Position numbers and translations under genes: made by a program. Below are positions 20,980 to 61,359 of a stretch of 64,000 nt of DNA, piece by piece. The stretch is from Candidatus Nomurabacteria bacterium. Its GTDB lineage: Bacteria > Patescibacteriota > Minisyncoccia > Phycocordibacterales > UBA9973. Below the pieces are notes generated by a model. It saw only the letters and a list, made by a program, of their open reading frames with translations, did no database searches and was not told the DNA's origin. The stretch covers positions 239,507-303,506 of the forward strand of contig JAHFNS010000001.1 in the NCBI GenBank assembly GCA_023267215.1, given 5' to 3'. Positions within the stretch are counted from its first letter, which is position 1. Every line of letters begins with the position of its first letter.

Positions 20980-22600
<1,621 letters not shown>

Positions 22601-22997: not shown

Positions 22998-25718
22998 TTA
23001 TTTTAATAAAGCTTTGCTAGTTGCAGGACCTAGCAATCCATCTACTGTAAGTCCATTTCCAGCCTGAAATTTTTTAAGAGCCATTTGAGTGGCATAACCA
23101 AAATATTCTGTCTCTTGGCCTACCTCCACTCCTTCGATTTTAAAACCTTTTTCATTTAATAATTTCTGAAGACATTTAACTTCAGAATCGTTTATCCCTT
23201 TACTTAAAATTTTAGTAAACTCAGAGCAACTTGATGCTTCTACATTTGTATTTATATTTGTTTGTGAATTTTTTTCATCATTATTTGTTGCACTACCGAA
23301 AGCATCTAACGCATTTGCTGTTAACGAACTAAAAATTGAATTTTTGCTTGCAGTTGTTCCGGATGTTGAATTTATTTTTACCGTCAAATTTATTTTTGGA
23401 CTTCCACTGTTGTTAGAACCTACTGCCATAAACGTCAGATTATATGTCCCAGCGGCAAAATATGAGTGAGTAAATATTGCTGTAGATTGAGTAGTACTCG
23501 ATGGCAAAATTAGACAAGAAGTATCTGTTGGACATTGAGCCCCAGCGTCTCCCCAATCGACTATATATGTAAGAGTTGCACCACTTGAACTAGAAGCATT
23601 TATTGTCCAAGTGCCTGTTTGATTTACATTTAAGGTTTGCGGACCAGAAATATTATAAATCGTTACGGTTCCACTAGAAACGACAGGAAGATTAATTGGA
23701 TTAGAAGGAGTTGTGATTGGAGTTGGAGTTGGAGAAGTAACAGTAAAGTAATTATCACTTGAATCTAAGATATCATAATTATATTTAAGAAGAATTTTTA
23801 CTTTATATTGACCAGGTGCTAAATTTTTCGATAAAGTAAAAGATTCTACTCCATCATTTGGTGTCCCGTCCGGACCAGTTAATTCATATCCATCAAAATA
23901 AATAGTATTCCCTGTATTGTTTAAAACGATTACAACTTTTTGATTGTCAGTTGAAATATTTGGTGAATTCCATTTCACAGTTATCATGTCTCCTGCTTTA
24001 TAAGTCTCTCCACCATTTGGCGAAAGAACATTTATAGAAGGAGTTGTTGTGGTCGTTGGAGTTGTGATAGGAGGAACAGTTCCACAAGACAATCCGTTTC
24101 TCTGCATCAAAAGTGAAGCATCGTAGGAAGAGACACTCCCGTTGCCATCTATATCTGCTCGTGATTTTTGATCAGTTGTGAGATTACCATTTACAGCTGC
24201 ATTTAAAATCATATTCACATCAGTGCAAGTGATAGAACCATCACCGTTTACGTCACCAAGCAAAGTTGAGACTGGTTTAACACATCTAAATGTATTACAT
24301 CCATCTGCTCCTGTGTAAGATTCTGGTGCTGTTCCAGCAGAACAACTGACAAAAATTTGTGGACAAGCTGGAGTTGAAGGAGTTGTTGCTCCACAAGTTA
24401 AACCATATCTTTGCATCAAGAGTGAAGAATCATATGCTTGTACACTCCCATTGCCATCTACATCTGCTCTTGATTTTTGGTCAACAGTTAAAGTTTTGTT
24501 CCCAACCACTGCATCTAAAATCATTTGATTATCTGTACAGGTAATAGAACCATCACCGTTTACATCACCAATTGATAAACTTGGAATTGGGGTCGTCCCA
24601 CCCACAGTCACAGTAAAATTACTTGAATTGATTCCACCTTTACAATCCGAAACTGTAACTTTTGCATTATATGTCCCTGCTTTATTCCAAACATGATTTG
24701 CATTATATGTCCAATTCTTTTTTTCTTGTAAATTTATATTTCCCATCGGACAAATCATACTGACGGCAGTTCCTTCACCCCAATCCGTTGACCAAATTAG
24801 ATTATCATTATCTGCGTCAGTAGCATTAAAAACAAAACTGACCGACTGACCAGTGTTTACATTTGAAGGGACTACAAAAGAACCAATAACAGGATTGTTA
24901 TTTGTTGGCACCGCTACACCAACTACATTTACCGTCAAACTCGTCTGTGCACTTCCTCCATTGCCAGGACATGGAGTTGTAATACATCTTATTGTATTTT
25001 CACTTGTCACTGTAAATACTGGCGTATATGTTCCTATTTGGGAATAAGTATGAGTGAAAGTTGCTGTTTGAGATTGCGGTTGTATTAAGGAATTTCCTTT
25101 TAAAATATCTGTAGAATAAACATCTCCCCAATTTACAGAATATGTAAGATTCCCGCCATTCGAGCTAGAAGCATTTATTGTCCACGTACCCATTTGATTT
25201 ACATTTAATGTTTGCGAACCAGAGACACTAGAAATAACTGGACCAGTTGAAGAAGTAGTACATTTATATGAAGTCGTACAATTATTTACACCTATGACTG
25301 GCTCTATTTTCCCATTAGGACAAAAATTTGGAGCTGGTTGTGTAATAGCTGGACAAATAATTGGAGTCACCCCACTACATCCACTCACACTTGATATTTT
25401 CGCTCTCGTTATTGGACCCACATATCCACTATTTAAAATACCAACTTTTGTTTGAAATGATTTCACAGCTATTTGAGTTAACAAACCAAAATAACCAGTT
25501 GGTTCTGAATTAAGATATCCTTGTGATTGTAAAAAATCTTGCAGAGTAGAAACATCTCCGCTGGTATTTATATCGCGGGAACGATATTGAAGATTGTGAG
25601 TAATAGAAGCACAAGATGAAGTTTGGTCTGGATTAACATCTCCAGTAATTTGTGCAAACGAAAAACCTGGAACTAATAGAACTCCAGCAAGAAACAAAAC
25701 GATAATATATTTCTTCAT
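22998..25718 (-). CDS. Large secreted cell-surface protein with peptidoglycan-binding, PKD-like and dockerin-like domains
   Basis: Signal peptide (MKKYIIVLFLAGVLLVPGFSFAQ). PG_binding_1-like modules at both ends (LQDFLQSQGYL..GYFG; LQKLLNEKGF..GYATQMALKKFQ). Two PKD-like modules (WGD...FTHTY...GTYT). Two dockerin-like repeats (GDVNGDGSITCTD...ADVDGNGSV). Thr/Pro-rich linkers. Confidence 0.6.
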   Translation of the reverse strand: MKKYIIVLFLAGVLLVPGFSFAQITGDVNPDQTSSCASITHNLQYRSRDINTSGDVSTLQDFLQSQGYLNSEPTGYFGLLTQIAVKSFQTKVGILNSGYVGPITRAKISSVSGCSGVTPIICPAITQPAPNFCPNGKIEPVIGVNNCTTSYKCTTSSTGPVISSVSGSQTLNVNQMGTWTINASSSNGGNLTYSVNWGDVYSTDILKGNSLIQPQSQTATFTHTYSQIGTYTPVFTVTSENTIRCITTPCPGNGGSAQTSLTVNVVGVAVPTNNNPVIGSFVVPSNVNTGQSVSFVFNATDADNDNLIWSTDWGEGTAVSMICPMGNINLQEKKNWTYNANHVWNKAGTYNAKVTVSDCKGGINSSNFTVTVGGTTPIPSLSIGDVNGDGSITCTDNQMILDAVVGNKTLTVDQKSRADVDGNGSVQAYDSSLLMQRYGLTCGATTPSTPACPQIFVSCSAGTAPESYTGADGCNTFRCVKPVSTLLGDVNGDGSITCTDVNMILNAAVNGNLTTDQKSRADIDGNGSVSSYDASLLMQRNGLSCGTVPPITTPTTTTTPSINVLSPNGGETYKAGDMITVKWNSPNISTDNQKVVIVLNNTGNTIYFDGYELTGPDGTPNDGVESFTLSKNLAPGQYKVKILLKYNYDILDSSDNYFTVTSPTPTPITTPSNPINLPVVSSGTVTIYNISGPQTLNVNQTGTWTINASSSSGATLTYIVDWGDAGAQCPTDTSCLILPSSTTQSTAIFTHSYFAAGTYNLTFMAVGSNNSGSPKINLTVKINSTSGTTASKNSIFSSLTANALDAFGSATNNDEKNSQTNINTNVEASSCSEFTKILSKGINDSEVKCLQKLLNEKGFKIEGVEVGQETEYFGYATQMALKKFQAGNGLTVDGLLGPATSKALLK

Positions 25719-25823
25719 ATTTTTATTCCCTAGTTTTTCTCTAGAGAAATTATTTAATAAACTTAATAATAAAAATTTAATAAAATTATACTTCTGTTGA
25801 TATATATCTGTCAAGAATAGTTT

Positions 25824-26936
25824 TTATTTCCCCAATATAATAGCTACGATATCTGGAAAATGTTCTGTATAGTCGCCAAATATTTGTTCTCCAAAAGCAT
25901 CTACTTCAAATTTCTCCCAAGTTATCTTTTCTTTAAACCCAGCTCCAGAATATGAACCGAAGCTCATTGGTGATGAATGTATTTCGATGAATCCTGCCCA
26001 TGAACGCACGACTTTCTCTTGCACTTCTTCTGTTTCTTCAAAAAGAAAATCTTTCTTAATGTGAGGAACGACACAAATAGGAAAATCTGCAGCGATACCT
26101 CCACCTAATTGCAAGAAGGCTAAACCTTTTTCTTTTGTATTGTCCATATACCATTCAGCAAGTCTATGCATGTAACGGAATGAATGATGAACGACATCAG
26201 GACTTATTGGTTTTTCTAATTTATATTTGGCCAGTAATGGATGATCACCATCGTAGCAAGCATGAGTGAAAATATTTCCCATGGTTGAATCTTCTGCTCC
26301 TGGAACAAAAACTGGAATTTTATTTAAGTACGCTTGATAGAGCCAGCATTCATCTGGATTGGCTGTCGGGTCAAACTTTATAAGTTTTCTTTCGAAAAGT
26401 TGGAAGAAATATTCATGCCACAAAAGAGGCTTGTTGTTTTCTTCTGCCTCACGCCACAATTTTTCTAATTCTGGTAGGACGACTCGGACTGATTCATCTT
26501 CTGGTAAAAATGTATCTGTGATTCTGCGAAGTCCTGCCCGAGCCAATTCTTTTTCTTCTTGTCTAGTGAGCTCGACATAGTCTGGAATGTAAGCATAATG
26601 ACTATTCGCCACGAGTCTATATAAACTTTCTTCCATATTTGCTCCTGTGACAGAAATGGCTGCTATCTTTCCAGCTCTGATGAGTTCAGATATCATGATA
26701 CCTTGTTGAAAAGAAGAACCTGCTCCAGACATAGTCAAAAATATTTTACCTCCGTTGTCTGTATGCTTCTTTAACCATAGTCCTGCATTGATGGTCTTTC
26801 CACCATTGCAATGTCTTTTCGTATCGACAAGCCAGTTTGTAATAGGTGTCTTAGGATCAGGCTTATAATCTCTCTCCCCCATAAAAATTTTAGCTTGTAA
26901 TTCCTTACTTAATGTAGATATTTTTTGTTGTGACAT
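25824..26936 (-). CDS. Deoxyhypusine synthase-family protein (DHS-like NAD-binding)
   Basis: TMSGAGSS...VTGANMEESL...AGLRRITDTFLP resemble the DHS conserved blocks (TaGgiEED; GlnRIGn). Confidence 0.5.
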   Translation of the reverse strand: MSQQKISTLSKELQAKIFMGERDYKPDPKTPITNWLVDTKRHCNGGKTINAGLWLKKHTDNGGKIFLTMSGAGSSFQQGIMISELIRAGKIAAISVTGANMEESLYRLVANSHYAYIPDYVELTRQEEKELARAGLRRITDTFLPEDESVRVVLPELEKLWREAEENNKPLLWHEYFFQLFERKLIKFDPTANPDECWLYQAYLNKIPVFVPGAEDSTMGNIFTHACYDGDHPLLAKYKLEKPISPDVVHHSFRYMHRLAEWYMDNTKEKGLAFLQLGGGIAADFPICVVPHIKKDFLFEETEEVQEKVVRSWAGFIEIHSSPMSFGSYSGAGFKEKITWEKFEVDAFGEQIFGDYTEHFPDIVAIILGK

Positions 26937-29160: not shown

Positions 29161-31098
29161 ATGAGAAAAAACAGACTACCTTTCAGTGCTTTAAGCATAG
29201 AACCTGCACATAATAATGTGCATAACAATAATACAGGTTTGGTGAAAAAAGAATTACCAAATCAAAATTCTAGACATCACTCTACAAAAAAACCTATAAA
29301 AAGTTCTACTTATCAATATTCCAAAAAAAATTACGGACAATCTCGAAACAAAAATCATTCATTAAATGACAAAAATAAATACAAAGATATTAATGAAAAT
29401 AAAATTCCTAAAATAGAAGAAGGAGTCGTTCGTATTATTCCGCTCGGTGGCGTAGAAGAAATTGGAAAAAATATGACTGCCATTGAAATCGGTGATGATA
29501 TTATCGTCATTGATGCTGGTATGCATTTTTCCAACGAAGATACGCCAGGAGTAGATTACGTCATTCCAAATACAACATATCTCGAAGAACATAAAGATAA
29601 AATACGTGGACTTTTTATCACTCATGGACACTTGGACCACATAGGAGGAGTACCTTTGGTGCTTTCTCGTATTGGTAATCCACCTGTTTATTCTCGCCAG
29701 CTTTCAATGCTCTTGATGCGAAAACGTCAAGCAGAATTTCCTCAATTACCTCCCATGAAAGAAAATATTGTAGAAAAAGACGAAGTTATTACTTGTGGAA
29801 AAATAAAAATAAGATTTTTTGGTGTTATGCATACAATTCCTGATTCTATGGGAATAATTGTTGAGACAAAAAATGGTTGGATAGTAAATCCAGGAGACTA
29901 TAAATTGGACCAAATAGATGGAATCGTAACACAAATAGAAGAAAAAGAATATTCTATCTTCGATCGTGCAAAAGTTTTGCTCTTGATGACTGATTCCACA
30001 AATATAGAAAATGAGGGTTTTGCTTTGCCTGAAATAAAAGTACATCAAGGATTAGAAAACTTAATAAAAAAAATAAACGGTAGAATAATCATCGCCGCTT
30101 TCGCTTCTCATATCACTCGACTAGCTCATATAATAAAAGTTGCAGAGTCTCTCGGTAAAAAAGTAGCATTTGACGGTCGTTCAATGAAAACGAACATAGA
30201 TGTTGCAATAGAAACTGGATTTTTAACACTTAAAAAAGGTACTTTAATACCAATAGAAGAAGCTAAAGATTATCCACCAAATAAAATTGTTGCCCTTATG
30301 ACGGGCGCGCAAGGTGAAGAATTTGCCGCGTTAAATCGTGCTGCTAATAAATCTAATGCAAAATTTTCACTTCAAAAAGGAGACACGATAATACTTTCAG
30401 CTTCTGTTATTCCGGGCAATGAAAGAGCAGTAGTGAGAATGAAAGATGGTTTATCACGACAAGGTGTGAAAATTATTAGTTATCGTACAGCTGGAGAAGA
30501 TTTCGTACATGCTACAGGTCATGGCAACAAAGAAGATATAAAATGGCTTCATAAGAAAACTCATCCTAAATTTTTCATTGCTATTCACGGCAATCATTAT
30601 ATGTTAGAACTTCACAAAGAACTAGCTGTTGATCTTGGGATGTCAGAAAAAAATGTTATTGTACCAGACAATGGTTCAGTTATTGAAATTTCAGCTGATG
30701 GAGAAAAAATAAATATAAGAAAGGAAAAAGCACCAAGTGCTCCAATGATGGTAGATGGACTCTCAATTTCAGATCTACAAGACGTTGTAATTAGAGACAG
30801 ACAAATGCTCGCCCAAGATGGAATGTTTGTCATCATTGCACTCATTGATCAAAAAACAGGAAAATTAAAAAAATCCCCCGACCTTATATCTCGTGGTTTC
30901 GTTTATTTGAAAGAAAACCAAGAACTTTTACGCCAAGTACGAATCATTATTAAAAAAGGAGTGGAAGATGTAGCTGTAAAAAATAACGTAGTTGATCTTG
31001 ACCATATCAAAGCAAATCTAGGAGAGACTGTTTCAAAATTCTTATATCAAAAAACAGCCAAAAGACCATTAGTTATACCAGTAGTATTGAGTATATGA
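29161..31098 (+). CDS. rnj: Ribonuclease J (beta-CASP metallo-beta-lactamase RNase) with ~95-aa basic N/K/S-rich N-terminal extension
   Basis: RIIPLGGVEEIGKNMTAIEIGDDIIVIDAG and the HxHxDH motif (ITHGHLDHIGG), plus beta-CASP and C-terminal domain. Confidence 0.85.
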   Translation: MRKNRLPFSALSIEPAHNNVHNNNTGLVKKELPNQNSRHHSTKKPIKSSTYQYSKKNYGQSRNKNHSLNDKNKYKDINENKIPKIEEGVVRIIPLGGVEEIGKNMTAIEIGDDIIVIDAGMHFSNEDTPGVDYVIPNTTYLEEHKDKIRGLFITHGHLDHIGGVPLVLSRIGNPPVYSRQLSMLLMRKRQAEFPQLPPMKENIVEKDEVITCGKIKIRFFGVMHTIPDSMGIIVETKNGWIVNPGDYKLDQIDGIVTQIEEKEYSIFDRAKVLLLMTDSTNIENEGFALPEIKVHQGLENLIKKINGRIIIAAFASHITRLAHIIKVAESLGKKVAFDGRSMKTNIDVAIETGFLTLKKGTLIPIEEAKDYPPNKIVALMTGAQGEEFAALNRAANKSNAKFSLQKGDTIILSASVIPGNERAVVRMKDGLSRQGVKIISYRTAGEDFVHATGHGNKEDIKWLHKKTHPKFFIAIHGNHYMLELHKELAVDLGMSEKNVIVPDNGSVIEISADGEKINIRKEKAPSAPMMVDGLSISDLQDVVIRDRQMLAQDGMFVIIALIDQKTGKLKKSPDLISRGFVYLKENQELLRQVRIIIKKGVEDVAVKNNVVDLDHIKANLGETVSKFLYQKTAKRPLVIPVVLSI

Positions 31099-32243
31099 AG
31101 CATAACAGAAAAATAATATATTTAGCAGGATTTTTATTTTCCATTCCCATAGCTCTCACCTCTTATATAAATTCTAGTTTTTTGGAAAATTACATTGATA
31201 AAAATTATATCGGTGTTATCTACATAATTGCATCAATTTTGACCATCTTGGGCTTACTAAAAATGCCCAAACTTTTAACCTACCTTGGAAATCGTTCAAC
31301 AATTATTTTGTTTTCTTTTTTAATCTTTCTTTCGCTTATTTTATTAGCATTTGGAAATACAGTTTTTACTATTCTCTCAGCTTTTATTGTCTATTTTATT
31401 TCTATCAATTTTGTTATTGCTTCTCTTGATATTTTTATTGAAGATTTCTCTAAAAATTCCCCCATCGGCTCACTTCGAGGATTTTATTTGACAGTTATAA
31501 ACCTTGCCTGGGTTATTGCTCAATTTATTTCTGGTTCAATTATTGATAAAAGTTCTTTTCTAGGTCTTTATCTATTTAGTTCATTGTTTATGGTTTTAGT
31601 TTTGTTTATTTTCATAGTATTTTTACATGATTTTAAAGATCCAGAATACAAAAAGATATCTACCTTGAAAACAATAAAAACTTTTATTCAGAGCAAACAT
31701 CTCTCAAAAATATATTTTATAAATTTTATTATAAAATTTTTTTACTCTTGGATGGTCGTTTATACACCTATTTATTTACATGAATATATGGGTTTTAATT
31801 GGGATAAAATTGGTATAATTTTTGGAATTATGCTTTTACCTTTTGTTATTTTAGATTTTCCTTTGGGTAAACTCTCAGATAAAATCGGTGAGAAAAAAAT
31901 GCTTTTTATTGGTTTTTTAATTATAATTTTTTCTGTTTTGATAATTCCTTTTATTAAAGAATCCATACTTTGGATTTGGGCTTCAATTCTTTTTGCGACA
32001 CGTATGGGTGCAGCCACGATTGAGGTAATGAGTGAAAGTTATTTTTTCAAAATAGTAAAAGAAGAAAACGCTGATGAAATCAGTTTCTTCAGAAACACTT
32101 ATCCCCTTTCTTATATCATCGCCCCACTTTTCGCTATCCCTATTTTGCTATTAGTACCTTCTTTTAAATATCTCTTCTTCGTTTTAGGTGCAGTATTACT
32201 CGTAGGATTCTTCATCACCCTACGAGTAAAAGATGTAAAATAA
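31095..32243 (+). CDS. MFS-type transporter (12 predicted TM helices)
   Basis: 382 aa, uniformly hydrophobic, helices in a 6+6 arrangement. Confidence 0.55.
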   Translation: MKHNRKIIYLAGFLFSIPIALTSYINSSFLENYIDKNYIGVIYIIASILTILGLLKMPKLLTYLGNRSTIILFSFLIFLSLILLAFGNTVFTILSAFIVYFISINFVIASLDIFIEDFSKNSPIGSLRGFYLTVINLAWVIAQFISGSIIDKSSFLGLYLFSSLFMVLVLFIFIVFLHDFKDPEYKKISTLKTIKTFIQSKHLSKIYFINFIIKFFYSWMVVYTPIYLHEYMGFNWDKIGIIFGIMLLPFVILDFPLGKLSDKIGEKKMLFIGFLIIIFSVLIIPFIKESILWIWASILFATRMGAATIEVMSESYFFKIVKEENADEISFFRNTYPLSYIIAPLFAIPILLLVPSFKYLFFVLGAVLLVGFFITLRVKDVK

Positions 32244-33618: not shown

Positions 33619-34059
33619 TTATATATGTCTTTTCTTATTTAGCAAGTGGCTTTTATATATATTTTGTTTATATGGCTTCAAACGTTTAATTTTTATTAAA
33701 AAGTTATTATTTTTTAAGTCTTTTCTTAGCTCCTTTACATATGCCTTCTGATCATAACCTAAAGCAATTATATTTGGTTTTTCTTTTTTAATATGAAAAA
33801 AATAATTTTTCAAACTACCTAAAACCACCTTATCAACCAACTTACTTTTTTTTACTAAATTCGTTCTTTTCTTTTCATTTAAAAATGGCTTTACGCCTTT
33901 TATTCTTTTAACATTCTTGTCTCTAGCTATAGATACGATTAAAAATGAATTTTGGTGCAATTTTTTTGCTTGTTTAAAAAAATTTAAGTGACCTTCGTGT
34001 AATCCATCAAAAGTACCAAAAATCATTATTTTCGTTTGTTCGTTATTTCTATTTAACAT
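33619..34059 (-). CDS. Cytidylyltransferase-like nucleotidyltransferase (HIGH-motif family; FMN adenylyltransferase/TagD-like)
   Basis: MIFGTFDGLHEGH is a (H/T)xGH nucleotidyltransferase motif. Confidence 0.5.
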   Translation of the reverse strand: MLNRNNEQTKIMIFGTFDGLHEGHLNFFKQAKKLHQNSFLIVSIARDKNVKRIKGVKPFLNEKKRTNLVKKSKLVDKVVLGSLKNYFFHIKKEKPNIIALGYDQKAYVKELRKDLKNNNFLIKIKRLKPYKQNIYKSHLLNKKRHI

Positions 34060-34149
34060 TGTTTTATTATAACAATTTTGTTATCCACAGTAAAAATTGA
34101 CAGATACTAGAGAAAGCATAAAATGAAAGAGTTCATTAAAAAGTTATAG

Positions 34150-34288
34150 TAAGTGATTGGGGAAACTGGTTAGATTCCAGTACAGTGCCGCTACGGTAAG
34201 TCCTGAACACCAATAGGTGGAAGGAACAAGTCCGATTACCAATCATTTTTATGAATCCCGAGCAGGACTAAGCCATTTTGAAGGCCCA
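34150..34288 (+). promoter_or_regulatory. Cobalamin (B12) riboswitch aptamer
   Basis: GGGAAACTGGTTAGATTCCAGTACAGTGCCGCTACGGTAAGTCC...GGAAGGAAC parallels the cobalamin-riboswitch core GGGAAnCCGGTGAAAATCCGGnnCnGnCCCGCCACTGTAA...GGAAGG, including a variant B12 box (GCCGCTACGG). Confidence 0.7.
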
Positions 34289-34316
34289 AAATTCTGCTCA
34301 AGCAGAATTTTTTCGT
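34289..34316 (+). terminator. Riboswitch expression-platform terminator
   Basis: AAAATTCTGCTCAAGCAGAATTTTTTCG: 8-bp stem plus T-run, immediately before the ATG at 34320. Confidence 0.65.
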
Positions 34317-34319
34317 TTT

Positions 34320-34763
34320 ATGCAAGATAAAAACAACAAAAAAGTAATATGGTTCGGTCTTATTGTTTCTATTTTTTTCTTTCTAATTTTTATTTTCACA
34401 AAAGATCTTGGACAAAATACCACAAACAGGCAAGGCCTGTTAGAACAAGTCTTGCCTGGTGCTATTGAAACAGATCAAGCATTTCTAGAAATCAATGAGA
34501 AAAAAATTGGGACAAAAATAATAAAAAATGAAAATATTTATGATTTCATGCAAGAATTACAAAAAGAAAGAAAAATAAACTTCAAAGATACAACTTATAT
34601 CGGAATGGGAAAATTAATTGAAGAGATAAACGGAATTAAAAACAGTGGAGAAAGAAATTGGATTTATTATGTGAATGATGTTGAAGCACAAGTCGGTGTT
34701 TCAAATTATAAATTAAAAGTTGGAGACGTGGTGTCTTGGAAATATGAGCAAACAAATCATTAA
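34320..34763 (+). CDS. Membrane-anchored DUF4430-like protein (transcobalamin/intrinsic-factor beta-domain-like)
   Basis: N-terminal TM. C-terminal NWIYYVNDVEAQVGVSNYKLKVGDVVSWKYE resembles the DUF4430 W.y.vNg...G...y.lk.GD.i.w.y motif. Confidence 0.45.
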   Translation: MQDKNNKKVIWFGLIVSIFFFLIFIFTKDLGQNTTNRQGLLEQVLPGAIETDQAFLEINEKKIGTKIIKNENIYDFMQELQKERKINFKDTTYIGMGKLIEEINGIKNSGERNWIYYVNDVEAQVGVSNYKLKVGDVVSWKYEQTNH

Positions 34764-36309
34764 AATAATATTATTAAGTTTTATATCTCTTGGTTTTTTC
34801 AGTACTGTTTATGCAGATACTCCAATACATTTAAAGATAGCTACTCCAACAAATATAATTTATGATAAAGATATAACCGTCACCCCTTGTGATAGTGATA
34901 ATAATCCTCTAACCCCAGATATCATCACAGCCTACTGTGCAATCCTACAATCTGAAATATCAAATATCTGGGACTGGAGTTGGGCTCCTGGTGCATTCGT
35001 CACTTCTATAAATAATATTTCTGGTTTTACAAGCAAAGACAGAAACAATAATGATGTTTATCATTATTGGAGTTGGACTTTAAATGGAACAGAGGGGGCC
35101 ACTGGATTAAATCAATATACTTTACAGCCAAATGATTTAATTTCTCTTAATTTTATAGATCCAATAGATCTAACTCCTATCGTTTCAGCTGGTTCTCCAC
35201 AAATTGTCTCCCCAGAAATTAGTGCTACCCCCACCGCACTAGAACCAACAAGGGTACCAGTATCTACGCCTATAAAAATAAAACCTATATTTGATACAAA
35301 AAAGGCTTCTGATTTTATAGTATCACAACAAAAGGAGGATGGAACTTGGGGAAATGATCTTTACACAGACTGGATAGCTATCTCTCTGGCTTCTTTGAAA
35401 AAAGAAGATCAAAAAATAAATCCAATTATAGAATTAATAAAATATTTATCTTTAAATAAAATTTCTAGCACACTTTTAACCGATCATGAAAGACATACTA
35501 TGGCTCTATCAGCTCTCGGACTTAATCCATACAACATCAATGGAGAAAATTATATAAAAAAAATAACAGATAGTTTCGATGGGAAACAATTTGGTGATAT
35601 TGATAAAGATAATGATGATATTTTTGCTTTGATTGTTTTACAAAATGCTGGTTTTACTAAAGATGAAGATATTATTAAAAATGATATCTCTTACATATTA
35701 TCAAAACAAAAAGAAAATGGTTCTTGGGATAATAGTGTAGATATGACAGGAGCTGCTATGGAGTCTCTTTCTATATTTAGTAAACAAGACCCCTTCCTAA
35801 CCTCCCCCTTAGCAGAGGGAGGAACAATTCCAAATGCTATTAGTAAAGCAAAAGAGTATTTAAAACAAAACCAAAAAGATGATGGCGGTTTTGGCAATGT
35901 TTCTTCCACCTCTTGGGCTATAGAAGGTATCTTATCTCTCGGAGAAAAAGCAGAAGATTGGATAAAAAATGAACAATCCCCTATTGATTATTTAGCGACT
36001 ATGCAAAATGAAGATGGGAGTGTAAAAGAAGATAATTTAGACAACAAAATCTGGCAAACATCTTATGCTCTTTCAGCATTATCAGGGAAAACTTGGAATG
36101 AATTAATGCAAAAATTTGAAAAACCAAAAGAAATATTAGAAGAAAAAATAATTAAAAAATATACTCCAAAAATAAAAAACTCAAAAATTCAAAATAATGC
36201 AAACACCATAAATTCCATAATTAATTCTCCAATAAACACAGAAAAAGAAACAGCTCCTATAAAAAAGAGCTGGTTCAAAAACTTTTTAAATAAATTATTT
36301 GGAATTTAA
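34720..36309 (+). CDS. Secreted protein: DUF4430-like beta domain plus alpha/alpha-toroid domain (terpene-cyclase/prenyltransferase-like QxxDGxW repeats)
   Basis: Signal/TM segment. N-terminal domain with WSWTLNGTEGATGLNQYTLQPNDLISLNF (DUF4430-like). Then four repeats of the type QKEDGTWGND / QKENGSWDNS / QKDDGGFGNV / QNEDGSVKED. Confidence 0.5.
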   Translation: METWCLGNMSKQIIKIILLSFISLGFFSTVYADTPIHLKIATPTNIIYDKDITVTPCDSDNNPLTPDIITAYCAILQSEISNIWDWSWAPGAFVTSINNISGFTSKDRNNNDVYHYWSWTLNGTEGATGLNQYTLQPNDLISLNFIDPIDLTPIVSAGSPQIVSPEISATPTALEPTRVPVSTPIKIKPIFDTKKASDFIVSQQKEDGTWGNDLYTDWIAISLASLKKEDQKINPIIELIKYLSLNKISSTLLTDHERHTMALSALGLNPYNINGENYIKKITDSFDGKQFGDIDKDNDDIFALIVLQNAGFTKDEDIIKNDISYILSKQKENGSWDNSVDMTGAAMESLSIFSKQDPFLTSPLAEGGTIPNAISKAKEYLKQNQKDDGGFGNVSSTSWAIEGILSLGEKAEDWIKNEQSPIDYLATMQNEDGSVKEDNLDNKIWQTSYALSALSGKTWNELMQKFEKPKEILEEKIIKKYTPKIKNSKIQNNANTINSIINSPINTEKETAPIKKSWFKNFLNKLFGI

Positions 36310-37630: not shown

Positions 37631-38185
37631 TTATAAATTTTCTTTCTTGTAAAAGTAAGCAACCAACAAAAGAGTAATGAGAGCAAAAAATACTGTTAAA
37701 GAAAACATCGGAATAGAAATATATCCTCCGACTTCATCCACAAATTTTTGAACACAAGAAATACCAGAAGCATCACAAGCACCTACGCTTTCTGTAAAAT
37801 AATAAATAAAATTATGATAAAGTGAGATCAACAAACCTGAGAGGAGAAGTGGAAAAATATAACCTGTCACGTTCCTATCCTTTTTTAAATAGGCCATACC
37901 AAAAAGCACTGTCTGGGGAAATAAAAATATTCTTTGTAGCCAACACAAAAAGCATACAGCATAACCCGCCACTTCAGAATAGAAAAGTGACAAAACAGCG
38001 GTAAAAAATGAAATAATAAATCCGATTAACAAAAAATGTTCTGAAACAAAAGAAAGAAATTCATTTTTAAAACTGTTTTTATTAGGAACTGCAAAAAGAA
38101 GGATCAAAGTAAAAACACACAAGAATTGTAACGTAATTGCAAAGACACCGAGAATTAAATTAAGATAATGTATATATGTCATCAA
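37631..38185 (-). CDS. dsbB: Disulfide bond formation protein B (DsbB/BdbC family)
   Basis: Four TM helices. CFLCWLQR (the Cx2C-W-QR motif of BdbC/DsbB) and a second Cys pair (GACDASGISC). Confidence 0.6.
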   Translation of the reverse strand: MMTYIHYLNLILGVFAITLQFLCVFTLILLFAVPNKNSFKNEFLSFVSEHFLLIGFIISFFTAVLSLFYSEVAGYAVCFLCWLQRIFLFPQTVLFGMAYLKKDRNVTGYIFPLLLSGLLISLYHNFIYYFTESVGACDASGISCVQKFVDEVGGYISIPMFSLTVFFALITLLLVAYFYKKENL

Positions 38186-39242: not shown

Positions 39243-39617
39243 TTAATTAGCTGGTAATACACAACCACTTATTTTTGCTAAATTATCCAATTCTTGTTCT
39301 CCAACATATTTTTGCCCTTTTTCATCTATCCAAGTTGGATAACTCTCTACTCCTTTGGCGATACATTCATCTGATTTTTCTGTACATTCAACGTAAGGCA
39401 CATATTTAAAAGAATCTCCGAAACGTTCTTTTTGTGCTTTACAGTGAGAACACCAAGAAGCACCATACATCGTCAAATTTTTTGAAGCGAGACATTGCGC
39501 AAAAGTATCATATTTACCAAGTGGAACATTTCCTCCTCCACCTTGTAATAAAACAGTCGCGACTGTGCCTAAAACCAAGAGAACAATTACTAAAAAGAAA
39601 ATATTTTTTTGTTTCAT
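39243..39617 (-). CDS. Secreted thioredoxin-fold thiol-disulfide oxidoreductase
   Basis: Signal peptide plus thioredoxin-type CxxC active site (MYGASWCSHCKAQK). Confidence 0.65.
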   Translation of the reverse strand: MKQKNIFFLVIVLLVLGTVATVLLQGGGGNVPLGKYDTFAQCLASKNLTMYGASWCSHCKAQKERFGDSFKYVPYVECTEKSDECIAKGVESYPTWIDEKGQKYVGEQELDNLAKISGCVLPAN

Positions 39618-50772: not shown

Positions 50773-51498
50773 TTATTTATTTTTTATTGCTTGTCCGATA
50801 TGCCACACCAATCGTTCGTATGACCAGCGATCTAACGCTCTCTGTCCACTTAGCATTGATGAGAAAAAGATGGGTATCTTTTTACTTCCTCTTGTAAACC
50901 AATGGAAGCCTCTACTCTCATCCCATAATAAATCATTCTTAATATGTTCCCGTAGTAGTTCAGAAGCAAATGCATTTCCAACTATTATGCATCGTGGGTC
51001 AACCTCAACAAGAATTTCTTCAAAAAGAACAATTTGGTCTAAAGCAAACTGATTTAATTTTTTACCATCTCTTATGCGTTCCATAAAATCTTTCTGGGAA
51101 GTTTCTTTGTATAAAAATAAATCTATGTGTTGCCAATCGACTCCGAGTTTCTTTGATATCTCAATTGGACGACCAAAATAGAGTGGATATTTTGCTTGTG
51201 CATAATTCTCTATTTTAATACAGTCATCAACTAGATTTAGGTTTAAAGATATATTACTCCACTTGAAGAAAACAGTAGGATCAAGATAAGTATATTCTGT
51301 ATCCTTCAAAATTGACTTGAACCCACGTGCACTAAAAGATGGGTTCATTCCGACAAAAAGAAGCGAGTCTTTCTTAAAATCCTCGTAAAAAAGTGGTGAA
51401 TACACGTCAGGATTATTTTTGAAATATTTATTCCACAGTTCTATTATTTTTTGATTGATTTTCTGATTTTTCATAAACTTGTTTATGCTATTAACCAA
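50773..51498 (-). CDS. Hypothetical protein with possible uracil-DNA-glycosylase-superfamily (MUG/TDG-like) fold
   Basis: LLFVGMNPSFSARGF resembles the MUG/TDG motif VFCGINPGLSSAG. C-terminal FFSSMLSGQRAL could be the second UDG motif. Overlaps the hamB-like stop by 8 bp. Confidence 0.3.
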   Translation of the reverse strand: MVNSINKFMKNQKINQKIIELWNKYFKNNPDVYSPLFYEDFKKDSLLFVGMNPSFSARGFKSILKDTEYTYLDPTVFFKWSNISLNLNLVDDCIKIENYAQAKYPLYFGRPIEISKKLGVDWQHIDLFLYKETSQKDFMERIRDGKKLNQFALDQIVLFEEILVEVDPRCIIVGNAFASELLREHIKNDLLWDESRGFHWFTRGSKKIPIFFSSMLSGQRALDRWSYERLVWHIGQAIKNK

Positions 51499-54079
51499 AG
51501 ATTTCTAATACTTCTTCGTAGTGTTCATTTTTCTTATCAATCACTTTCAGTAATTCTGTCTCTTTAACATCAAGCAATTCTCCAGTATCACTAAATGTAA
51601 GGAGATCACTATGTTCACTGATAAGGTATCTGGAAGCCCCACGAGAAAAACCAATATTTTGAAGTTCAATTACACGTTTGTCAGTCGTTCCATACTCAAT
51701 AAATTCTGACCAATCTTGGCCTGCATTTTCTTCACCCAAAACATATCTAGAAAGCAGGTAATAATTTAAGAAATATTTTTCAATTTTAAATCTCAAGCCA
51801 TTTTCAATATCACTCATTATTTGCTCAATAATAATATTAATTTGTTTCTGGTCACCAGTAAACTTTTCATTTATTGGGCGTCCATCTTCGTAGAACCAAA
51901 TATCTCCTTTTTCTTGATGATACTTCAAAGAAAAAGTTATTAACCTACTGATGGGTTCAGCTTTCGTCCAGTTTCTTATAAGCATAGCCCAATATCTTAA
52001 ACGAGACATACCATGACCTACTCCCACTAATCCTTTTGGAATTAATGGATCTCTTCCCCCTGATTCTTCAACGCCCCAGTTGTACATTTCATACAAAGTC
52101 TCAAGTGCGTGAACAATCACATCAATATTTTCATTATTTATAGTTAGCACTGCTTGCTGTTGATTTTTCTGAATGTATACAAGAACTTTATTTTGATAGA
52201 TAGGTTTTATTGTTGAAGAAGATCTAAGAATATCACTTGGGACATTATTATTTTTCTTAGTTTTTTCTAAGAGTTCAAAGGCTTGAGTATTCTTTTCAAA
52301 AAAGCCAGCTTTGAGAACCGAACCATCATTCTCAATATGGTGCAATAACATGATGGTAGAGTAATGGGTTAAATTTTCTTTTTCACCAACACGCAAACTA
52401 GTAGATAAATCTTCATTCAGTAAAGCCTTACCAATATTGATAAATTCTTTTTTCCTTCGTTTTTCTTTGTTTATCAAAAAACTATCAACTTTTTCTAAGT
52501 CTGTTTTCTTAAGCAGATCAGCACCTTCCTTCCATCGTCTGTCTTCGTCTCGAACACAAATAACATTACCAGAAACTTCTTTCATAAGACGACCAGCACG
52601 ACCAATTAAATTTTCAAAATCGATTTTTTCAAATGTATGTGACCCATGACCATCATTAAAGACAAATATGTTCTTCGCTGGAAGATTTATGCCTTCCAAT
52701 AATGTTGAGGTGCAAAAAACATACCTAAGTGACGAATCCTTGTCAGCAAAGAAATCTTCAATTTTACGTCTAACTGGTTGGGGCATTTTCCCATGGTGAA
52801 ATGCCACACCTTTTCTGAGACATTCAATAAGGTAATAATCTTTGTGGACATAATCAGCAATAAAAACAATTAGGTCACGAAGTTCTTGGGTATCTGGAAC
52901 TTTCTGTAGGGTTAAGGCAAATTCTTTCGCCCTTCGTACCGTCTCAGAAATTCCATTACAATAGATAATGTTATTAACATCCTTGCCTAGATTTTCAATT
53001 AACTTGTTTGAGCTAAGATTAAACTGAAAATTATCCAATTCATGTTTATCACCAAGATCAGAAAATAATGTGGCATGTTTTTCTTTAAAATCAACAAAGT
53101 ATCTATTCTGAGCAACTGTCTGTTCTGTAATAGCAAGCGAACCCTTTTCGTCCTTCTCAAACAATTTCAAGAAAATATCTGGGTTGGGTATATTAGGTGA
53201 TGCAAAAACTAATTTTGTGGCAAACCTTCGTGTAGTTTCATATATCGCATGATAGTAAAGAGAGCTACGAGAATCATTTTCGGCAATTACTTTCTGAGCC
53301 TCATCCACAAACAAATATTTTATAGTAAGACTATTGGTACTTACATAACTTAGTAATCTTTCAGGTGTAAAAACAAATACGTGGTGCTTGTATCGTTTCT
53401 GGGCATATGAGGACAACACTGGATGAGAAGCAATGTTAACTTCGCTGTCATCAATTTCATTTCTTAATTCAGCAACAACCTGACCAATCAACGCTCTAGT
53501 TGGAACAAGAATTACAACAGCCCCATTAGATATTTGATTTTGTTGCAATAGGTGCCTGATATAATCTTTCATAATAAAAGATTTTCCAATTGATGTTGGA
53601 CCAGAAAAACTAAAGTAATCGAACAAATCTAATTCTTTTCTAATTTGATATTGGGCATCCGTAAAAACATATTTACCATTAGATGTTTTCTGATTTTCAG
53701 ACTTCACTTGTTTTTCTATATCCCTTTCTAGTGGAAGCGTACTAATATATTCGTGGTTATCTCGGAGAAACTGCAATGCAGGAAAATTTCCTAATTTTGA
53801 AAGAATCGCACTTGCAAACAAATTGAAGCCCTCGGTGTGTCCGAAAACTTTAACCAAAAGAGCAATAATCTTGTATGCCAAATTTCTTGCATTTGAATCA
53901 GTTGAATGAGATAGTATGTCTGCAAATCTCATTAAATCCTTAAACTCTTTTTCGGATATTGATTCTTTCGTTGCAAGACTGAAACAATCACAAGCTGAAA
54001 TCACTTCTGCTTTCTGAAAAAGACTCAGAAAATAATCATCCTTCAATATGTCGTTTTTCAGAGTTTCAGCAATGGTCAT
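51491..54079 (-). CDS. hamB: Superfamily-2 helicase, Hachiman HamB-like
   Basis: 862 aa. Walker A GPTSIGKS, motif II FVDEAQKV, motif VI GRAGR. Start overlaps the upstream DUF1837-like gene by 4 bp. Confidence 0.55.
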   Translation of the reverse strand: MTIAETLKNDILKDDYFLSLFQKAEVISACDCFSLATKESISEKEFKDLMRFADILSHSTDSNARNLAYKIIALLVKVFGHTEGFNLFASAILSKLGNFPALQFLRDNHEYISTLPLERDIEKQVKSENQKTSNGKYVFTDAQYQIRKELDLFDYFSFSGPTSIGKSFIMKDYIRHLLQQNQISNGAVVILVPTRALIGQVVAELRNEIDDSEVNIASHPVLSSYAQKRYKHHVFVFTPERLLSYVSTNSLTIKYLFVDEAQKVIAENDSRSSLYYHAIYETTRRFATKLVFASPNIPNPDIFLKLFEKDEKGSLAITEQTVAQNRYFVDFKEKHATLFSDLGDKHELDNFQFNLSSNKLIENLGKDVNNIIYCNGISETVRRAKEFALTLQKVPDTQELRDLIVFIADYVHKDYYLIECLRKGVAFHHGKMPQPVRRKIEDFFADKDSSLRYVFCTSTLLEGINLPAKNIFVFNDGHGSHTFEKIDFENLIGRAGRLMKEVSGNVICVRDEDRRWKEGADLLKKTDLEKVDSFLINKEKRRKKEFINIGKALLNEDLSTSLRVGEKENLTHYSTIMLLHHIENDGSVLKAGFFEKNTQAFELLEKTKKNNNVPSDILRSSSTIKPIYQNKVLVYIQKNQQQAVLTINNENIDVIVHALETLYEMYNWGVEESGGRDPLIPKGLVGVGHGMSRLRYWAMLIRNWTKAEPISRLITFSLKYHQEKGDIWFYEDGRPINEKFTGDQKQINIIIEQIMSDIENGLRFKIEKYFLNYYLLSRYVLGEENAGQDWSEFIEYGTTDKRVIELQNIGFSRGASRYLISEHSDLLTFSDTGELLDVKETELLKVIDKKNEHYEEVLEIFG

Positions 54080-55005
54080 TGTATGTATTCAATTATTTTC
54101 TTTCTAGTAGAGTCTATACAAACATCGCCTTTCTTTATAAACGGTACGGCGTAGATATAAAAATGATAGCCAGATAAATTATAGGCTGTAATTTGTTCTT
54201 TTATATAGTCATATTTTTCCTCTACAGCTTTTTTAACTTCTTCTTTTATTTTCTTTTCAAAATCAGAGTCTGTTATATTTTGAAGATCCCAATCATTTAT
54301 ATCGATTTCAAATCCAACGAAAATACCAAAGGCATTCATTTTCGTAATTGTGGTATCGCGGGCAGATGGTTTAATAATCTTTTTCAAAAACTCAACTGTA
54401 GCTTCTGAATAAGATTCTTTCATGAGATTAGAATCAACGAGATTTAATTCACCACCGATACCCTCAGTTTCAACTTTCTTAATTGATTTAAAAGCATCAG
54501 CGATTGCCTTGCGGAAACTTGAACCTTTTTCAGTTGAATCACTGATCATTTTTGATTCTCCAAAAATTAGATGAAAATTTCCATCTCCTAAATCAAGTAA
54601 ATGAATTCCATCAGCTCCTTTTATATAATCATTACCAGCTGTTTTCAATTCCATTTTGGATAATATTTTTGGAGCATTCAAGTGTGTCTCTAAAAAACAA
54701 TACAGAAAAAGTTCTCCTCCTTCTCCGTCATTAACCTTAGAATTTCTAAAGGATTCCTGAACTCGCTTTATGTGTTCATGCATTTTACCTTCTTCAATTC
54801 CTTCAAATTTAGTACGAGAAAATACATAAGTAATCGCAGCGTTACCCAATTCTCGATTCATACTTTCATAATCGAAATGCCCACCGTCTATACGCAACAC
54901 ATACAAACTAACTTTAGTCTTCTGAGTTAATTCATGAGCATCAATCTCTGGTTTATAGAAGAGATCCAAAAATTGTTTTCCATTTTTTATACTTTGTTGC
55001 AACAT
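54076..55005 (-). CDS. hamA: DUF1837-like protein, Hachiman HamA-like
   Basis: 309 aa. GELFLYCFLE...APKILSKMELKT...DGIHLLD core recalls DUF1837. Placed 5' of, and overlapping, a large SF2 helicase gene, as in Hachiman. Confidence 0.5.
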   Translation of the reverse strand: MLQQSIKNGKQFLDLFYKPEIDAHELTQKTKVSLYVLRIDGGHFDYESMNRELGNAAITYVFSRTKFEGIEEGKMHEHIKRVQESFRNSKVNDGEGGELFLYCFLETHLNAPKILSKMELKTAGNDYIKGADGIHLLDLGDGNFHLIFGESKMISDSTEKGSSFRKAIADAFKSIKKVETEGIGGELNLVDSNLMKESYSEATVEFLKKIIKPSARDTTITKMNAFGIFVGFEIDINDWDLQNITDSDFEKKIKEEVKKAVEEKYDYIKEQITAYNLSGYHFYIYAVPFIKKGDVCIDSTRKKIIEYIQ

Positions 55006-56147: not shown

Positions 56148-57434
56148 ATGAAAAAACAAAAATTAGTGTGGCGTACGGAAAAGCGAAAAGTAAATTCGCT
56201 AATTCCTTATGACAAAAATCCGAGGAGTATAACTAAAACACAAGAAGACCAATTAGATTCAAGTGTCGTTACTTACGGTTATGTGGAGTTGGTTGCAATA
56301 AATACAGATGGAGTGATTATTGCCGGACACAAAAGAGTCGAATCTCTTAAACGTCTAGGTTGTGGCGAAGAAGAAATAGAAGTGAGAATTCCGTGTCGTA
56401 AATTATCGGAAAAAGAATTCAGAGCATATTTGCTCATTAGCAATCGCTCTGGAGGAACATTCGATTTTGATAAGTTGGCGGCTGATTTTGACATCGATGA
56501 ACTTCTAACAGCAGGATTTGATTCACTGGATTTAAGCAATATCTTTGATGACAACTTGGATGTTGTTGACGATGAATTTGACGAAGAAAAAGAAATTGAA
56601 AAAGCAAAAAATACTGATATTAAGATTGGGGATTATTTTGCCCTGGGTCGGCATAGACTACTTTGTGCAGATAGCACAGATCCAGAGAATGTTAGGAAGT
56701 TAATGAATGGAGTAAAAGCAGACATGGTCAATACAGATTTACCATATAATATTTCTTACTCATACGACAGCGGGTTGTCTAACAAAAAAGGAAAATATGG
56801 TGGACGAACCAACGACAGTAAGACTGATGAAGAGTACGATAAATTTGTAAAATCAGTTATGCGAAATGCATTGTCTGTCACTAAGCCCGATGCACATATA
56901 ATGTTCTGGTGCGATGAACGGTTTGTCTGGCTTTTTCAGAACGCATATAGAGAACTTGGCATTGATTCCAAACGACTACTCATCTGGATCAAGGACAATG
57001 CGACACCGACAGATAAAATAGCGTGGAATAAAGTAACAGAATATTGTGTTTATGGAACGATAGGTCATCCTTGGCTAAATAGCAAGATAAAAAATCTAAA
57101 TGAAATACAGAATAAAGAGGTTTCTACAGGGAATAGACTTACTGATGACATCCTAGATTTATTTAATATCTGGCTCGTAAAGAGATTGCCTGCATCTGAA
57201 TATTTACATCCCACTCAAAAAAATCCTACTCTTCACGAAAAAGCATTAAGAAGATGCACTCGCCCCGGAGATGTAGTTCTAGATCTTGCCTCGGGGTCAG
57301 GAAGTATTCTTTCATCATGTGAGCAAATGAAACGCACCGCATACATGTGTGATTGTGAAAATGTCTTTTGCCAAGTAATTATTAACCGCTTTAAACAACT
57401 TAATCCCAATGAAAAAATTATCAAACTCAATTAA
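56148..57434 (+). CDS. ParB-like nuclease domain fused to beta-class DNA N6-adenine/N4-cytosine methyltransferase
   Basis: N-terminal ParB/Srx block (IPYDKNPRS...VIIAGHKRVESLKRLG). Methyltransferase motif IV DLPYN, then motif I VLDLASGSGS. Confidence 0.8.
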   Translation: MKKQKLVWRTEKRKVNSLIPYDKNPRSITKTQEDQLDSSVVTYGYVELVAINTDGVIIAGHKRVESLKRLGCGEEEIEVRIPCRKLSEKEFRAYLLISNRSGGTFDFDKLAADFDIDELLTAGFDSLDLSNIFDDNLDVVDDEFDEEKEIEKAKNTDIKIGDYFALGRHRLLCADSTDPENVRKLMNGVKADMVNTDLPYNISYSYDSGLSNKKGKYGGRTNDSKTDEEYDKFVKSVMRNALSVTKPDAHIMFWCDERFVWLFQNAYRELGIDSKRLLIWIKDNATPTDKIAWNKVTEYCVYGTIGHPWLNSKIKNLNEIQNKEVSTGNRLTDDILDLFNIWLVKRLPASEYLHPTQKNPTLHEKALRRCTRPGDVVLDLASGSGSILSSCEQMKRTAYMCDCENVFCQVIINRFKQLNPNEKIIKLN

Positions 57435-58167: not shown

Positions 58168-58598
58168 GCAGAAAAGACACAATTAAAATTAGGCAGAATA
58201 AATTAAAAGAAGCTTTTCTTGATCAGCTTAAAAGGACGCCGACGATAGAAACAGCGTGTCAGAAAGTTGGAGTATCTCGGGCAACTGTATATCGATGGAT
58301 CAAAGAAAGTAAAAAGTTTGAACAACAGGTCGATGAATCACTAATTGAAGGCAGAACCTTTATGTCCGACATTGCTGAAAACCAACTCTTCTCCCTAATT
58401 GGCGACAAAAAAATTGAAGCAATTAGATTGTATCTCTCAACGCATAATGCTCGCTACGGCAATAAGCTTGAATTATCTGGAAATCTATCAACAAAAAATA
58501 AACCAATACCGAAAGAAGACAGAAAAGATATTTTTAGAGCATTAAAAATGTCATCACTTAAAAATTATGAAAAAAAAGAAAAAGAAAAAAGAAAGTGA
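58164..58598 (+). CDS. Phage terminase small subunit-like HTH protein
   Basis: 144 aa. HTH (IETACQKVGVSRATVYRWIKE). Overlaps the methyltransferase stop, and overlaps the next (large terminase) gene. Confidence 0.5.
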   Translation: MSRKDTIKIRQNKLKEAFLDQLKRTPTIETACQKVGVSRATVYRWIKESKKFEQQVDESLIEGRTFMSDIAENQLFSLIGDKKIEAIRLYLSTHNARYGNKLELSGNLSTKNKPIPKEDRKDIFRALKMSSLKNYEKKEKEKRK

Positions 58599-61252: not shown

Positions 61253-61359
61253 CCTTTATTTCTAAAGGTTTAGGCTACTTTTAATATATTTAATTGTGTT
61301 TACATCATAACGCATAAAAGCCCTTTTGTTAAGGGGAGCATGATCAAATCAACCAGTAT

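Follow-up and report, generated by a model that had tools for sequence, protein, structure and literature searches.

The 64-kb window analysed here, the whole stretch of DNA under study, comes from the Patescibacteria (candidate phyla radiation, CPR) and is of the Paceibacteria/Nomurabacteria type, as all its close protein relatives are named. On the forward strand it contains a leader RNA with a cobalamin riboswitch aptamer and an intrinsic terminator, followed by two genes, A and B. Gene A (34320-34763) encodes a protein of 147 residues with a transmembrane anchor, a linker and an SLBB/DUF4430 domain resembling the beta domain of transcobalamin. Gene B (34744-36309) overlaps it by 20 nt and encodes a predicted secreted protein of 521 residues, with a beta domain, a linker and an alpha domain in this order. 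The complete unit, riboswitch, terminator, A and B, is found in every related Patescibacteria locus with upstream sequence.

The leader, 260 nt long, spans the gap between a divergent gene encoding a cytidylyltransferase-like protein (33619-34059, reverse strand) and the first ATG. It contains a promoter-like site (34097-34124, forward strand), in which a consensus scan shows TTGACA, a 16-nt spacer and TAAAAT with 11 of 12 consensus matches, and the -10-like block is kept in the alignment of related leaders. Judging from these boxes the site may act as a promoter and, if it is used, the transcript would start at about 34131, in the 5' strand of the outer helix of the aptamer. The aptamer (34125-34261, forward strand) belongs to clan CL00101 and is compact, its P6 region being short. 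It matches the Rfam family RF00174 at full length (model positions 1-189) with 34.0 bits, against a gathering score of 31.5, and an E value of 6.3e-5, in line with an earlier reading of the letters alone (hereafter, the sequence-only reading), which had placed a cobalamin riboswitch upstream of the two-gene unit. Rfam aligns CAAGUCCGAUUACCAAUC (about 34228-34245) to the consensus stretch CgAGCCAGGAGACCuGCC, which we take to be the B12 box. The motifs listed in the sequence-only reading are essentially right, except that the B12 box was assigned to GCCGCTACGG, which is not aligned there.

Since the window score is marginal on its own, only 2.5 bits above the gathering score, the aptamer was tested by comparison across loci. 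The RF00174 gathering score is passed in 10 of 12 homologous loci, and in every case the match precedes the homolog of gene B by about 0.5-0.9 kb. A custom covariance model (R1), built from the RF00174 matches in related loci and run on the window and 81 loci, gives 143.7 bits at the window aptamer and finds 73 aptamers (the window and 72 loci), one per locus, all on the forward or coding strand and upstream of gene A. Each of the nine loci without a match ends just upstream of the genes. Among 72 distinct sequences, 97.2% of the cells are paired and 17 of the 27 pairs are changed on both sides; none of 500 shuffles reaches the observed values, and slid controls show 21-48% of paired cells. 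The best-scoring family among the relatives is mixed (RF00174, RF01482 or RF01689), and the aptamers of the sister clade described below score best with RF01482 or RF01689, both of clan CL00101 and above their cutoffs. The window aptamer has a fold z-score of -4.5. A chance match in AT-rich DNA, with genes unrelated to B12, would account for the E value and the small excess over the gathering score, but it is refuted by the homologous aptamers in the same position, the covariation and the clan-family matches in relatives, to which the fold z-score adds, and its probability is negligible. The leader RNA is almost certainly a cobalamin riboswitch acting by termination.

The terminator found by a terminator scan (34288-34319, forward strand) consists of a 10-bp hairpin at 34288-34311 with the loop TCAA and the T-tract TTCGTTTT, which reaches the ATG of gene A (34320). 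This agrees with the terminator abutting the first ATG that had been proposed at 34289-34316. A comparable hairpin and T-tract are present at most 220 nt 3' of the aptamer in 69 of the 73 loci, and the terminator stems vary in distant members, with compensatory stem variants. The invariant motif UCCCGAGCAGGA (34256-34267, forward strand), a stretch that includes GAGCAGGA at 34260-34267, is a candidate antiterminator strand which pairs with positions 34292-34299, in the 5' arm of the terminator, and it is unchanged even at loci with altered terminator stem sequence. In the window the antiterminator duplex has an energy of -12.4 kcal/mol versus -9.7 kcal/mol for the terminator hairpin. The motif is complementary to the terminator 5' arm and loop in 69 of 69 loci, more strongly than to shuffled arms in each of them, and the mean energy of the motif-arm duplex in these loci is -11.7 kcal/mol versus -4.35 kcal/mol with shuffled arms. 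Inspection by eye shows no convincing kissing-loop partner for the invariant CCCGAGCAGGA within the aptamer, a question for which covariation is of no help because both elements are invariant. The simplest reading is an OFF switch, in which read-through is the default and the bound ligand presumably masks the motif.

The protein encoded by gene A shows an N-terminal transmembrane helix (residues 6-31, nt 34335-34412), a disordered linker of about 20 residues, and an SLBB/DUF4430 domain (residues ~52-145, nt 34473-34754). This domain matches PF14478 (DUF4430) with 48 bits against a cutoff of 23.8, so that the DUF4430-like beta domain already noticed at the end of the first protein is corroborated, and 161 homologs of gene A, all with DUF4430, were found. 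A sequence search with gene A against PDB chains gives no match. All the top Foldseek matches in the PDB to the AlphaFold2 (AF2) model, whose predicted local distance difference test score (pLDDT) is 82, are transcobalamin, and the globular part fits the beta domain of human transcobalamin (5no0) with a template modelling (TM) score of 0.81 and a root-mean-square deviation of 1.7 Å over 99 columns, with an identity to transcobalamin beta of only 9-14%. The model contains strands at residues 53-58 and 61-66, a helix at 73-82, a hairpin at 88-93/97-103, and strands at 112-118 and 137-144. It thus carries the beta-hairpin insert after the helix that is the signature of the transcobalamin-like SLBB clade (Burroughs, Balaji, Iyer and Aravind, 2007; Biol Direct 2:4, PMC1796856). 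From its positively charged N-terminus, MQDKNNKK, the domain would face the outside of the cell.

The protein encoded by gene B, whose AF2 model has a pLDDT of 85, shows a Sec-type signal peptide (residues 1-24), an SLBB/DUF4430-like domain with a near-invariant Cys49/Cys65 pair (residues 26-138, nt 34819-35157), a disordered linker (residues 139-184), a single alpha/alpha toroid of 12 helices (residues 185-455, nt 35296-36108), a Lys/Asn-rich tail after the toroid, which is disordered and of low complexity, and the C-terminal motif KKSWFKNFLNKLFGI (residues 507-521, nt 36262-36306), a short helix in the model. The N-terminal domain is homologous to gene A: the hidden Markov models (HMMs) of both cross-match, and its Foldseek matches are the transcobalamin beta structures 5no0 and 5np4 and the DUF4430 structure 3u7z. 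The pair is "split", as the sequence-only reading had it, only in so far as gene A encodes a separate, paralogous beta protein; gene B alone contains both domain types, beta and then alpha. The near-invariant motifs DNDD and SVDxTGA (residues 331-337, nt 35734-35754) stand at starts of toroid helices and may serve ligand contact, structure or catalysis; W391, Q421, W437 and Y441 are conserved as well. The C-terminal motif, KK(N/S)WFxxLLxxIFxx, is kept family-wide (W510 in 51 of 60 homologs and F519 in 55 of 60). It is too short to span a membrane, no known sorting signal is recognised in it, and it may serve as an amphipathic anchor or for docking. In five loci (L097, L107, L111, L167 and L198), the riboswitch and terminator precede a single secreted protein of about 270 residues without a toroid, which has an SLBB domain of the gene B type (PF14478, 24.6 bits), the Cys pair, a Pro-rich linker and the end KKNWFxRLLDNIFxxF.

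Gene B lies next to gene A in about 70 of the 81 genome loci. In metagenome contigs scanned with the aptamer core, 120 loci were found; gene A is next in 92 of them, and gene B follows gene A in all 62 loci long enough to show both. Loci of the window type keep genes encoding a major facilitator superfamily (MFS) transporter, HtrA, a cytidylyltransferase and DoxX as neighbours, as general synteny only. The MFS transporter (31095-32243, forward strand), two to three genes upstream in 49 loci, was considered as a part of the system and rejected: the sister-clade arrangement lacks it, and its conservation is therefore attributed to general synteny.

The sister clade, which is more divergent, is represented by 12 loci: L021, L050, L064, L066, L072, L074, L078, L079 and L081, and L202-L204, which were reached independently. 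These loci show, on one strand, the genes for a ribonucleotide reductase (RNR), a membrane protein similar to the S components of energy-coupling factor (ECF) transporters, and PduO (in four loci), followed by the riboswitch, A, B, a thioredoxin-like protein and a DsbB-like protein. The RNR contains an ATP-cone and is of the adenosylcobalamin (AdoCbl)-dependent type (TIGR02505 with 290.7 bits, below the equivalog cutoff of 340, and the PF21995 insertion domain). The S-component-like protein has 173 residues and matches PF07155 with 28.0 bits against a cutoff of 26.7; its family has more than 800 members, with more than 70% identity among the best 120, and its best match among solved structures is 6FNP, the B12 transporter ECF-CbrT, which is not significant (E value of 0.25). 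The adenosyltransferase PduO matches TIGR00636 with 152.5 bits against 108.45. Only A and B lie downstream of the riboswitch in this clade. In L202-L204 a fused ABC_membrane/ABC_tran gene is found two to three genes upstream.

Two further neighbours are conserved. The DsbB-like membrane protein (37631-38185, reverse strand; PF02600, 29.8 bits) is encoded close to A and B in both synteny types and, in the sister clade, directly downstream and on the same strand. It may oxidise the Cys pair of the secreted domain. Its partner, the gene encoding a thioredoxin-like protein (39243-39617, reverse strand; PF00085, 25.7 bits), is likewise putatively linked to A and B, and the order B, thioredoxin-like, DsbB on one strand is found in L050, L066, L072, L078, L203 and L204.

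The same riboswitch subtype and terminator precede a different unit, which the window does not contain, in six metagenome loci (L099, L124, L132, L172, L195 and L201). This unit has a gene encoding a very acidic cytoplasmic protein of 490-910 residues without a Pfam match (MDTFDT.EEVMSEID...) and then a gene encoding a Clp/Hsp100-like double AAA+ ATPase (PF07724 AAA_2, 117 bits; e.g. in L172, oriented 2080+142..+3455). A B12-regulated chaperone-like pair of this kind is unexpected.

Genes A and B probably constitute a B12-repressed surface module that captures corrinoids for uptake. The sequence-only reading had taken them for a riboswitch-gated, surface-exposed, transcobalamin-like pair for B12 scavenging, and the conserved aptamer, the terminator platform, the domain folds and the genes related to B12 beside the cassette in the sister clade all speak for it. 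Several points weigh against it and are given here and in the next paragraphs, in addition to the marginal RF00174 score. The N-terminal domain of gene B reaches only 22.9 bits with PF14478, just below the cutoff of 23.8. Sequence profiles put the toroid closer to the repeats of squalene-hopene cyclase than to PF01122, the family of the animal carriers, with which residues 331-454 reach 23.5 bits (cutoff 25). The family profile run against the PDB retrieves squalene-hopene and terpene cyclases and no transcobalamin chain, and the best Foldseek match of the toroid is a type II terpene cyclase (8pak_B, 1.9e-6). A near-invariant DNDD at residues 289-292 (35608-35619) is aligned by HMMER to the catalytic DVDD of squalene-hopene cyclase 1gsz. 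No binding data for any bacterial member were found in the literature searched.

The first of these points is offset by the family: PF14478 is matched by 28 of 60 gene B homologs, with a best E value of 3.2e-12. The claim that the second protein contains another beta domain followed by QxxDGxW-type repeats stands for the toroid (PF13243 and the AF2 model), and for the beta domain it stands through these homologs and the model matches to transcobalamin beta and 3u7z, its own score being just under the Pfam cutoff. The transcobalamin-like character of the toroid stands as to fold, with Foldseek matches to the carriers 4kki (6.4e-5), 3kq4_A (7.4e-5) and 2bb5_A (1.4e-4) and TM scores, normalised to the target, of 0.42-0.50, and falls short as to sequence, which is cyclase-like, with PF01122 under its cutoff in the window and matched by 14 of 60 homologs at E values of 0.001 or less (best, 7.8e-8).

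Gene B could instead encode a secreted enzyme of the squalene-cyclase/prenyltransferase type, acting, for example, on a host-derived isoprenoid or remodelling a corrinoid, with the SLBB domains serving only for binding or targeting. PF13243 is matched with 41.9 bits against a cutoff of 26.1, and by 59 of 60 homologs; the profile matches only cyclases in the PDB, and sequence searches with gene B and with its toroid fragment against PDB chains give weak cyclase matches only, which do not place the toroid relative to transcobalamin. The DNDD that aligns with the cyclase DVDD is highly conserved (D289 in 48, N290 in 59, D291 in 59 and D292 in 60 of 60 homologs). NCBI calls relatives "terpene cyclase/mutase family protein"; another database name is [quoted passage not shown]. 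However, class II cyclases have their active site between two toroid domains, and cyclase models have about 620-640 residues. The AF2 model of gene B shows one toroid of about 270 residues and not the two-toroid architecture of about 630 residues, and the whole-protein NCBIfam cyclase models remain far below their cutoffs (TIGR01787 with 45.7 versus 322.7, and TIGR01507 with 28.7 versus 431.1). The signal peptide places the protein outside the cell, the fold match to the non-enzymatic B12 carriers is about equally good (E values from 6e-5 to 1e-3 with haptocorrin, transcobalamin and intrinsic factor, the cyclases being slightly better), B12 is indicated by the riboswitch control and by the nrdJ/PduO context, and in five loci the same riboswitch precedes the toroid-free SLBB protein. 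An enzyme is thus quite unlikely. Because of the single toroid, the failed whole-protein cyclase models, the export and the toroid-free loci, the toroid is treated as a ligand-binding module, and the database names are probably misleading for several hundred proteins.

A further point against uptake is the absence from the 64-kb window of a BtuCDF, ECF or BtuM-type importer, or of a B12-dependent enzyme, in a Pfam search of about 40 open reading frames (ORFs). In tblastn searches the sister-clade NrdJ, S-component-like and PduO proteins have no counterpart in the window, and the window genome's own S-component-like gene was not recognised among the best 120 of the more than 800 homologs. A scan for ATP-binding cassette (ABC) motifs shows no ORF with Walker A and LSGGQ in the window and two unrelated ones among 202 records, and neither a CbiO-like ATPase nor a CbiQ-like T component is present in the neighbour clusters. 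Neither the operon nor the 5 kb around it encodes a transporter in about 200 loci. This absence would fit A and B binding B12 for a purpose other than import, such as withholding it from competitors or the host, storage at the surface, or attachment through B12-decorated host molecules, as would the long flexible tail and conserved C-terminal motif of gene B and the Ig-like surface domains added in some homologs. But B12 typically represses uptake genes, and in relatives the genes next to the cassette encode an enzyme that uses B12, one that activates it and a membrane protein resembling S components, so that a role of this kind is very unlikely.

The last point concerns the ligand. A and B might capture another tetrapyrrole or a corrinoid precursor (heme, cobinamide or a cobyrinate-type compound), the riboswitch merely reporting the end product. 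The Lactobacillus sakei homologs Lsa1839 and Lsa1840 are encoded in an ECF operon (lsa1836-1840) experimentally linked to heme uptake, with heme as the proposed ligand and heme docking reported (bioRxiv 10.1101/864751). Cobinamide is accepted by haptocorrin and by CbrT, and Burroughs et al. (2007) allowed "B12 or its precursors". Against another ligand, the AdoCbl-dependent reductase and PduO of the sister clade both need complete cobalamin, hemin did not inhibit ECF-CbrT, and the heme claim for the two L. sakei proteins rests on docking. Reduced CPR genomes are, moreover, unlikely to complete corrinoid synthesis. A ligand other than B12 is accordingly unlikely.

The capture of corrinoids for uptake, the reading preferred here, would proceed as follows. 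Transcription would begin near 34131. At low intracellular cobalamin, CCCGAGCAGGA would pair with the 5' arm of the terminator and allow read-through into A and B; with cobalamin bound, this motif would be withheld, the hairpin at 34288-34311 with its U-tract would form, and transcription would stop at the start codon of gene A. The protein of gene A would be tethered by its N-terminal helix on the outer face of the membrane and display one SLBB domain of the transcobalamin-beta type. That of gene B would be exported through its signal peptide and contribute another SLBB domain and, beyond a flexible linker, the toroid. The corrinoid would be sandwiched between the face of the toroid and an SLBB domain, as in transcobalamin. 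[quoted passage not shown] From there the ligand would be taken over by the membrane-proximal SLBB domain of gene A and handed to an importer in the membrane, encoded outside the window, for which the best candidate is the highly conserved ECF S-component-like protein beside the cassette in the sister lineages.

The concept of such a system has been known since 2007, and the description of this scavenging mechanism as under-described in the sequence-only reading does not hold. Burroughs et al. (2007; PMC1796856) predicted operons of this type: bacterial transcobalamin-like SLBB proteins, secreted or surface-anchored, with the toroid on either side, often with a second paralogous SLBB protein in the operon and usually with CbiO/CbiQ-like genes, in organisms without B12 synthesis. 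They suggested that these proteins scavenge B12 and that the animal carriers are bacterial in origin. As in those operons, where the SLBB domain is a beta-grasp with a beta-hairpin insert and the toroid may be C-terminal to it, the window shows an SLBB domain fused to a toroid and a second SLBB paralog, here overlapping and adjacent in most loci. Unlike them, it shows no CbiO-like ATPase or CbiQ-like gene nearby, and the LPXTG or polysaccharide-binding anchoring domains are replaced by the N-terminal helix of gene A and the novel C-terminal motif of gene B. The word "riboswitch" has no occurrences in that text and Patescibacteria are absent from it, whereas here riboswitch control is found in a CPR lineage. 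In L. sakei, a beta/alpha pair that has also been discussed, beta and alpha are truly split over two proteins, and the genes for the S and T components and a duplicated ATPase are in the same operon; here gene B contains beta and alpha, gene A is an extra beta protein, ECF genes are not adjacent, and the control is by a cobalamin riboswitch. No description of the A/B system in CPR bacteria was found in the literature searched. The locus is a further member of this predicted kind, distinguished by its lineage, the explicit riboswitch control, the lack of nearby ECF energising genes and the anchoring devices.

The animal carriers transcobalamin, intrinsic factor and haptocorrin (2bb5, 2pmv and 4kki; PF01122 and PF14478) share with gene B a 12-helix toroid, an SLBB domain and a flexible linker. 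They differ in the order of the domains, alpha then beta in the carriers and beta then alpha in gene B, and the identity is 9-18%; the bacterial system also has an extra membrane-anchored beta protein, QW-type repeats, DNDD, and PF01122 below its cutoff. The sister-clade AdoCbl reductase, S-component-like protein and PduO follow the same gene logic as the nrdJ-cbrS-cbrT-pduO cluster of Lactobacillus delbrueckii, where CbrT is a proven B12 S component that needs an ECF module (Santos et al., 2018; PMC5997447). Unlike that cluster, these genes are not in the window, and no ECF module is seen near the CPR genes. CbrU and CbrV (CbrTUV of Rodionov) were considered as counterparts of A and B but are ATPase and T components of an ECF transporter. 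BtuG and BtuH are reportedly surface-exposed proteins that bind B12 with high affinity, are encoded in B12 transport loci and supply a transporter in the membrane; they would be functional analogues of A and B. Their folds are unrelated to those of A and B, and they belong to a Gram-negative outer membrane setting with BtuB. The comparison is one of analogy only and no homology is claimed. Both are surface B12-capture lipoproteins of Bacteroides (PMC6143338, PMC8941943).

Taken together, the secreted beta-alpha binder, the tethered beta domain and the solitary, extremely conserved S-component-like protein without an ECF ATPase module, in CPR of the Paceibacteria type, could tentatively be joined into one minimal B12 import route, which would supply the AdoCbl-dependent RNR, and thus DNA synthesis, in cells unable to make the cofactor, while the same riboswitch subtype would also govern the acidic protein and Clp/Hsp100-like unit, with B12 regulating a process not earlier tied to cobalamin. 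As a whole, this joint proposal is doubtful.

The rest of the 64-kb window contains several other features. A gene encoding HamA (PF08878, 172 bits) adjoins one encoding an 862-residue DEAD/Helicase_C protein (51491-55005, reverse strand), which looks like a defence pair of the Hachiman type. Beside these defence genes, an N6/N4 DNA methylase (56148-57434, forward strand) and a weak ORF similar to a terminase large subunit (58567-60021, forward strand) may be the remnant of a prophage or mobile element (56148-60021). A structured RNA, LOOT (RF03000), is found at 61157-61276 (reverse strand) with 85.1 bits against a gathering score of 46.4. The 16S rRNA (20982-22599, reverse strand) has 1618 nt, against a model of 1533 positions, and carries at least one insertion, which is 35 nt long and lies close to the 5' end. 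The remaining features, all on the reverse strand, encode a 938-residue surface protein with PKD, dockerin-type I and two peptidoglycan-binding domains (22998-25814), two proteins with C-terminal type IV secretion pilin domains (PF18895 / TrbC-VirB2; 147-860 and 1242-2297), and a deoxyhypusine synthase-like protein (PF01916, 95.8 bits; 25824-26936), here in a bacterial genome.

Patescibacteria have tiny genomes and obtain most cofactors from other cells. In the literature searched, no route by which they acquire vitamin B12 is described, and this locus offers a concrete, conserved and directly testable answer: one B12-sensing RNA governs two predicted surface proteins built from the parts of the human B12 carrier, and in sister lineages the cassette adjoins a B12-dependent enzyme for DNA precursors. 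The system is clean and universal in its clade and bears on how ultra-small symbionts get the cofactor for deoxyribonucleotide synthesis. It would also give the first biochemical test of the idea, put forward in 2007, that animal transcobalamin comes from bacterial surface B12 scavengers.

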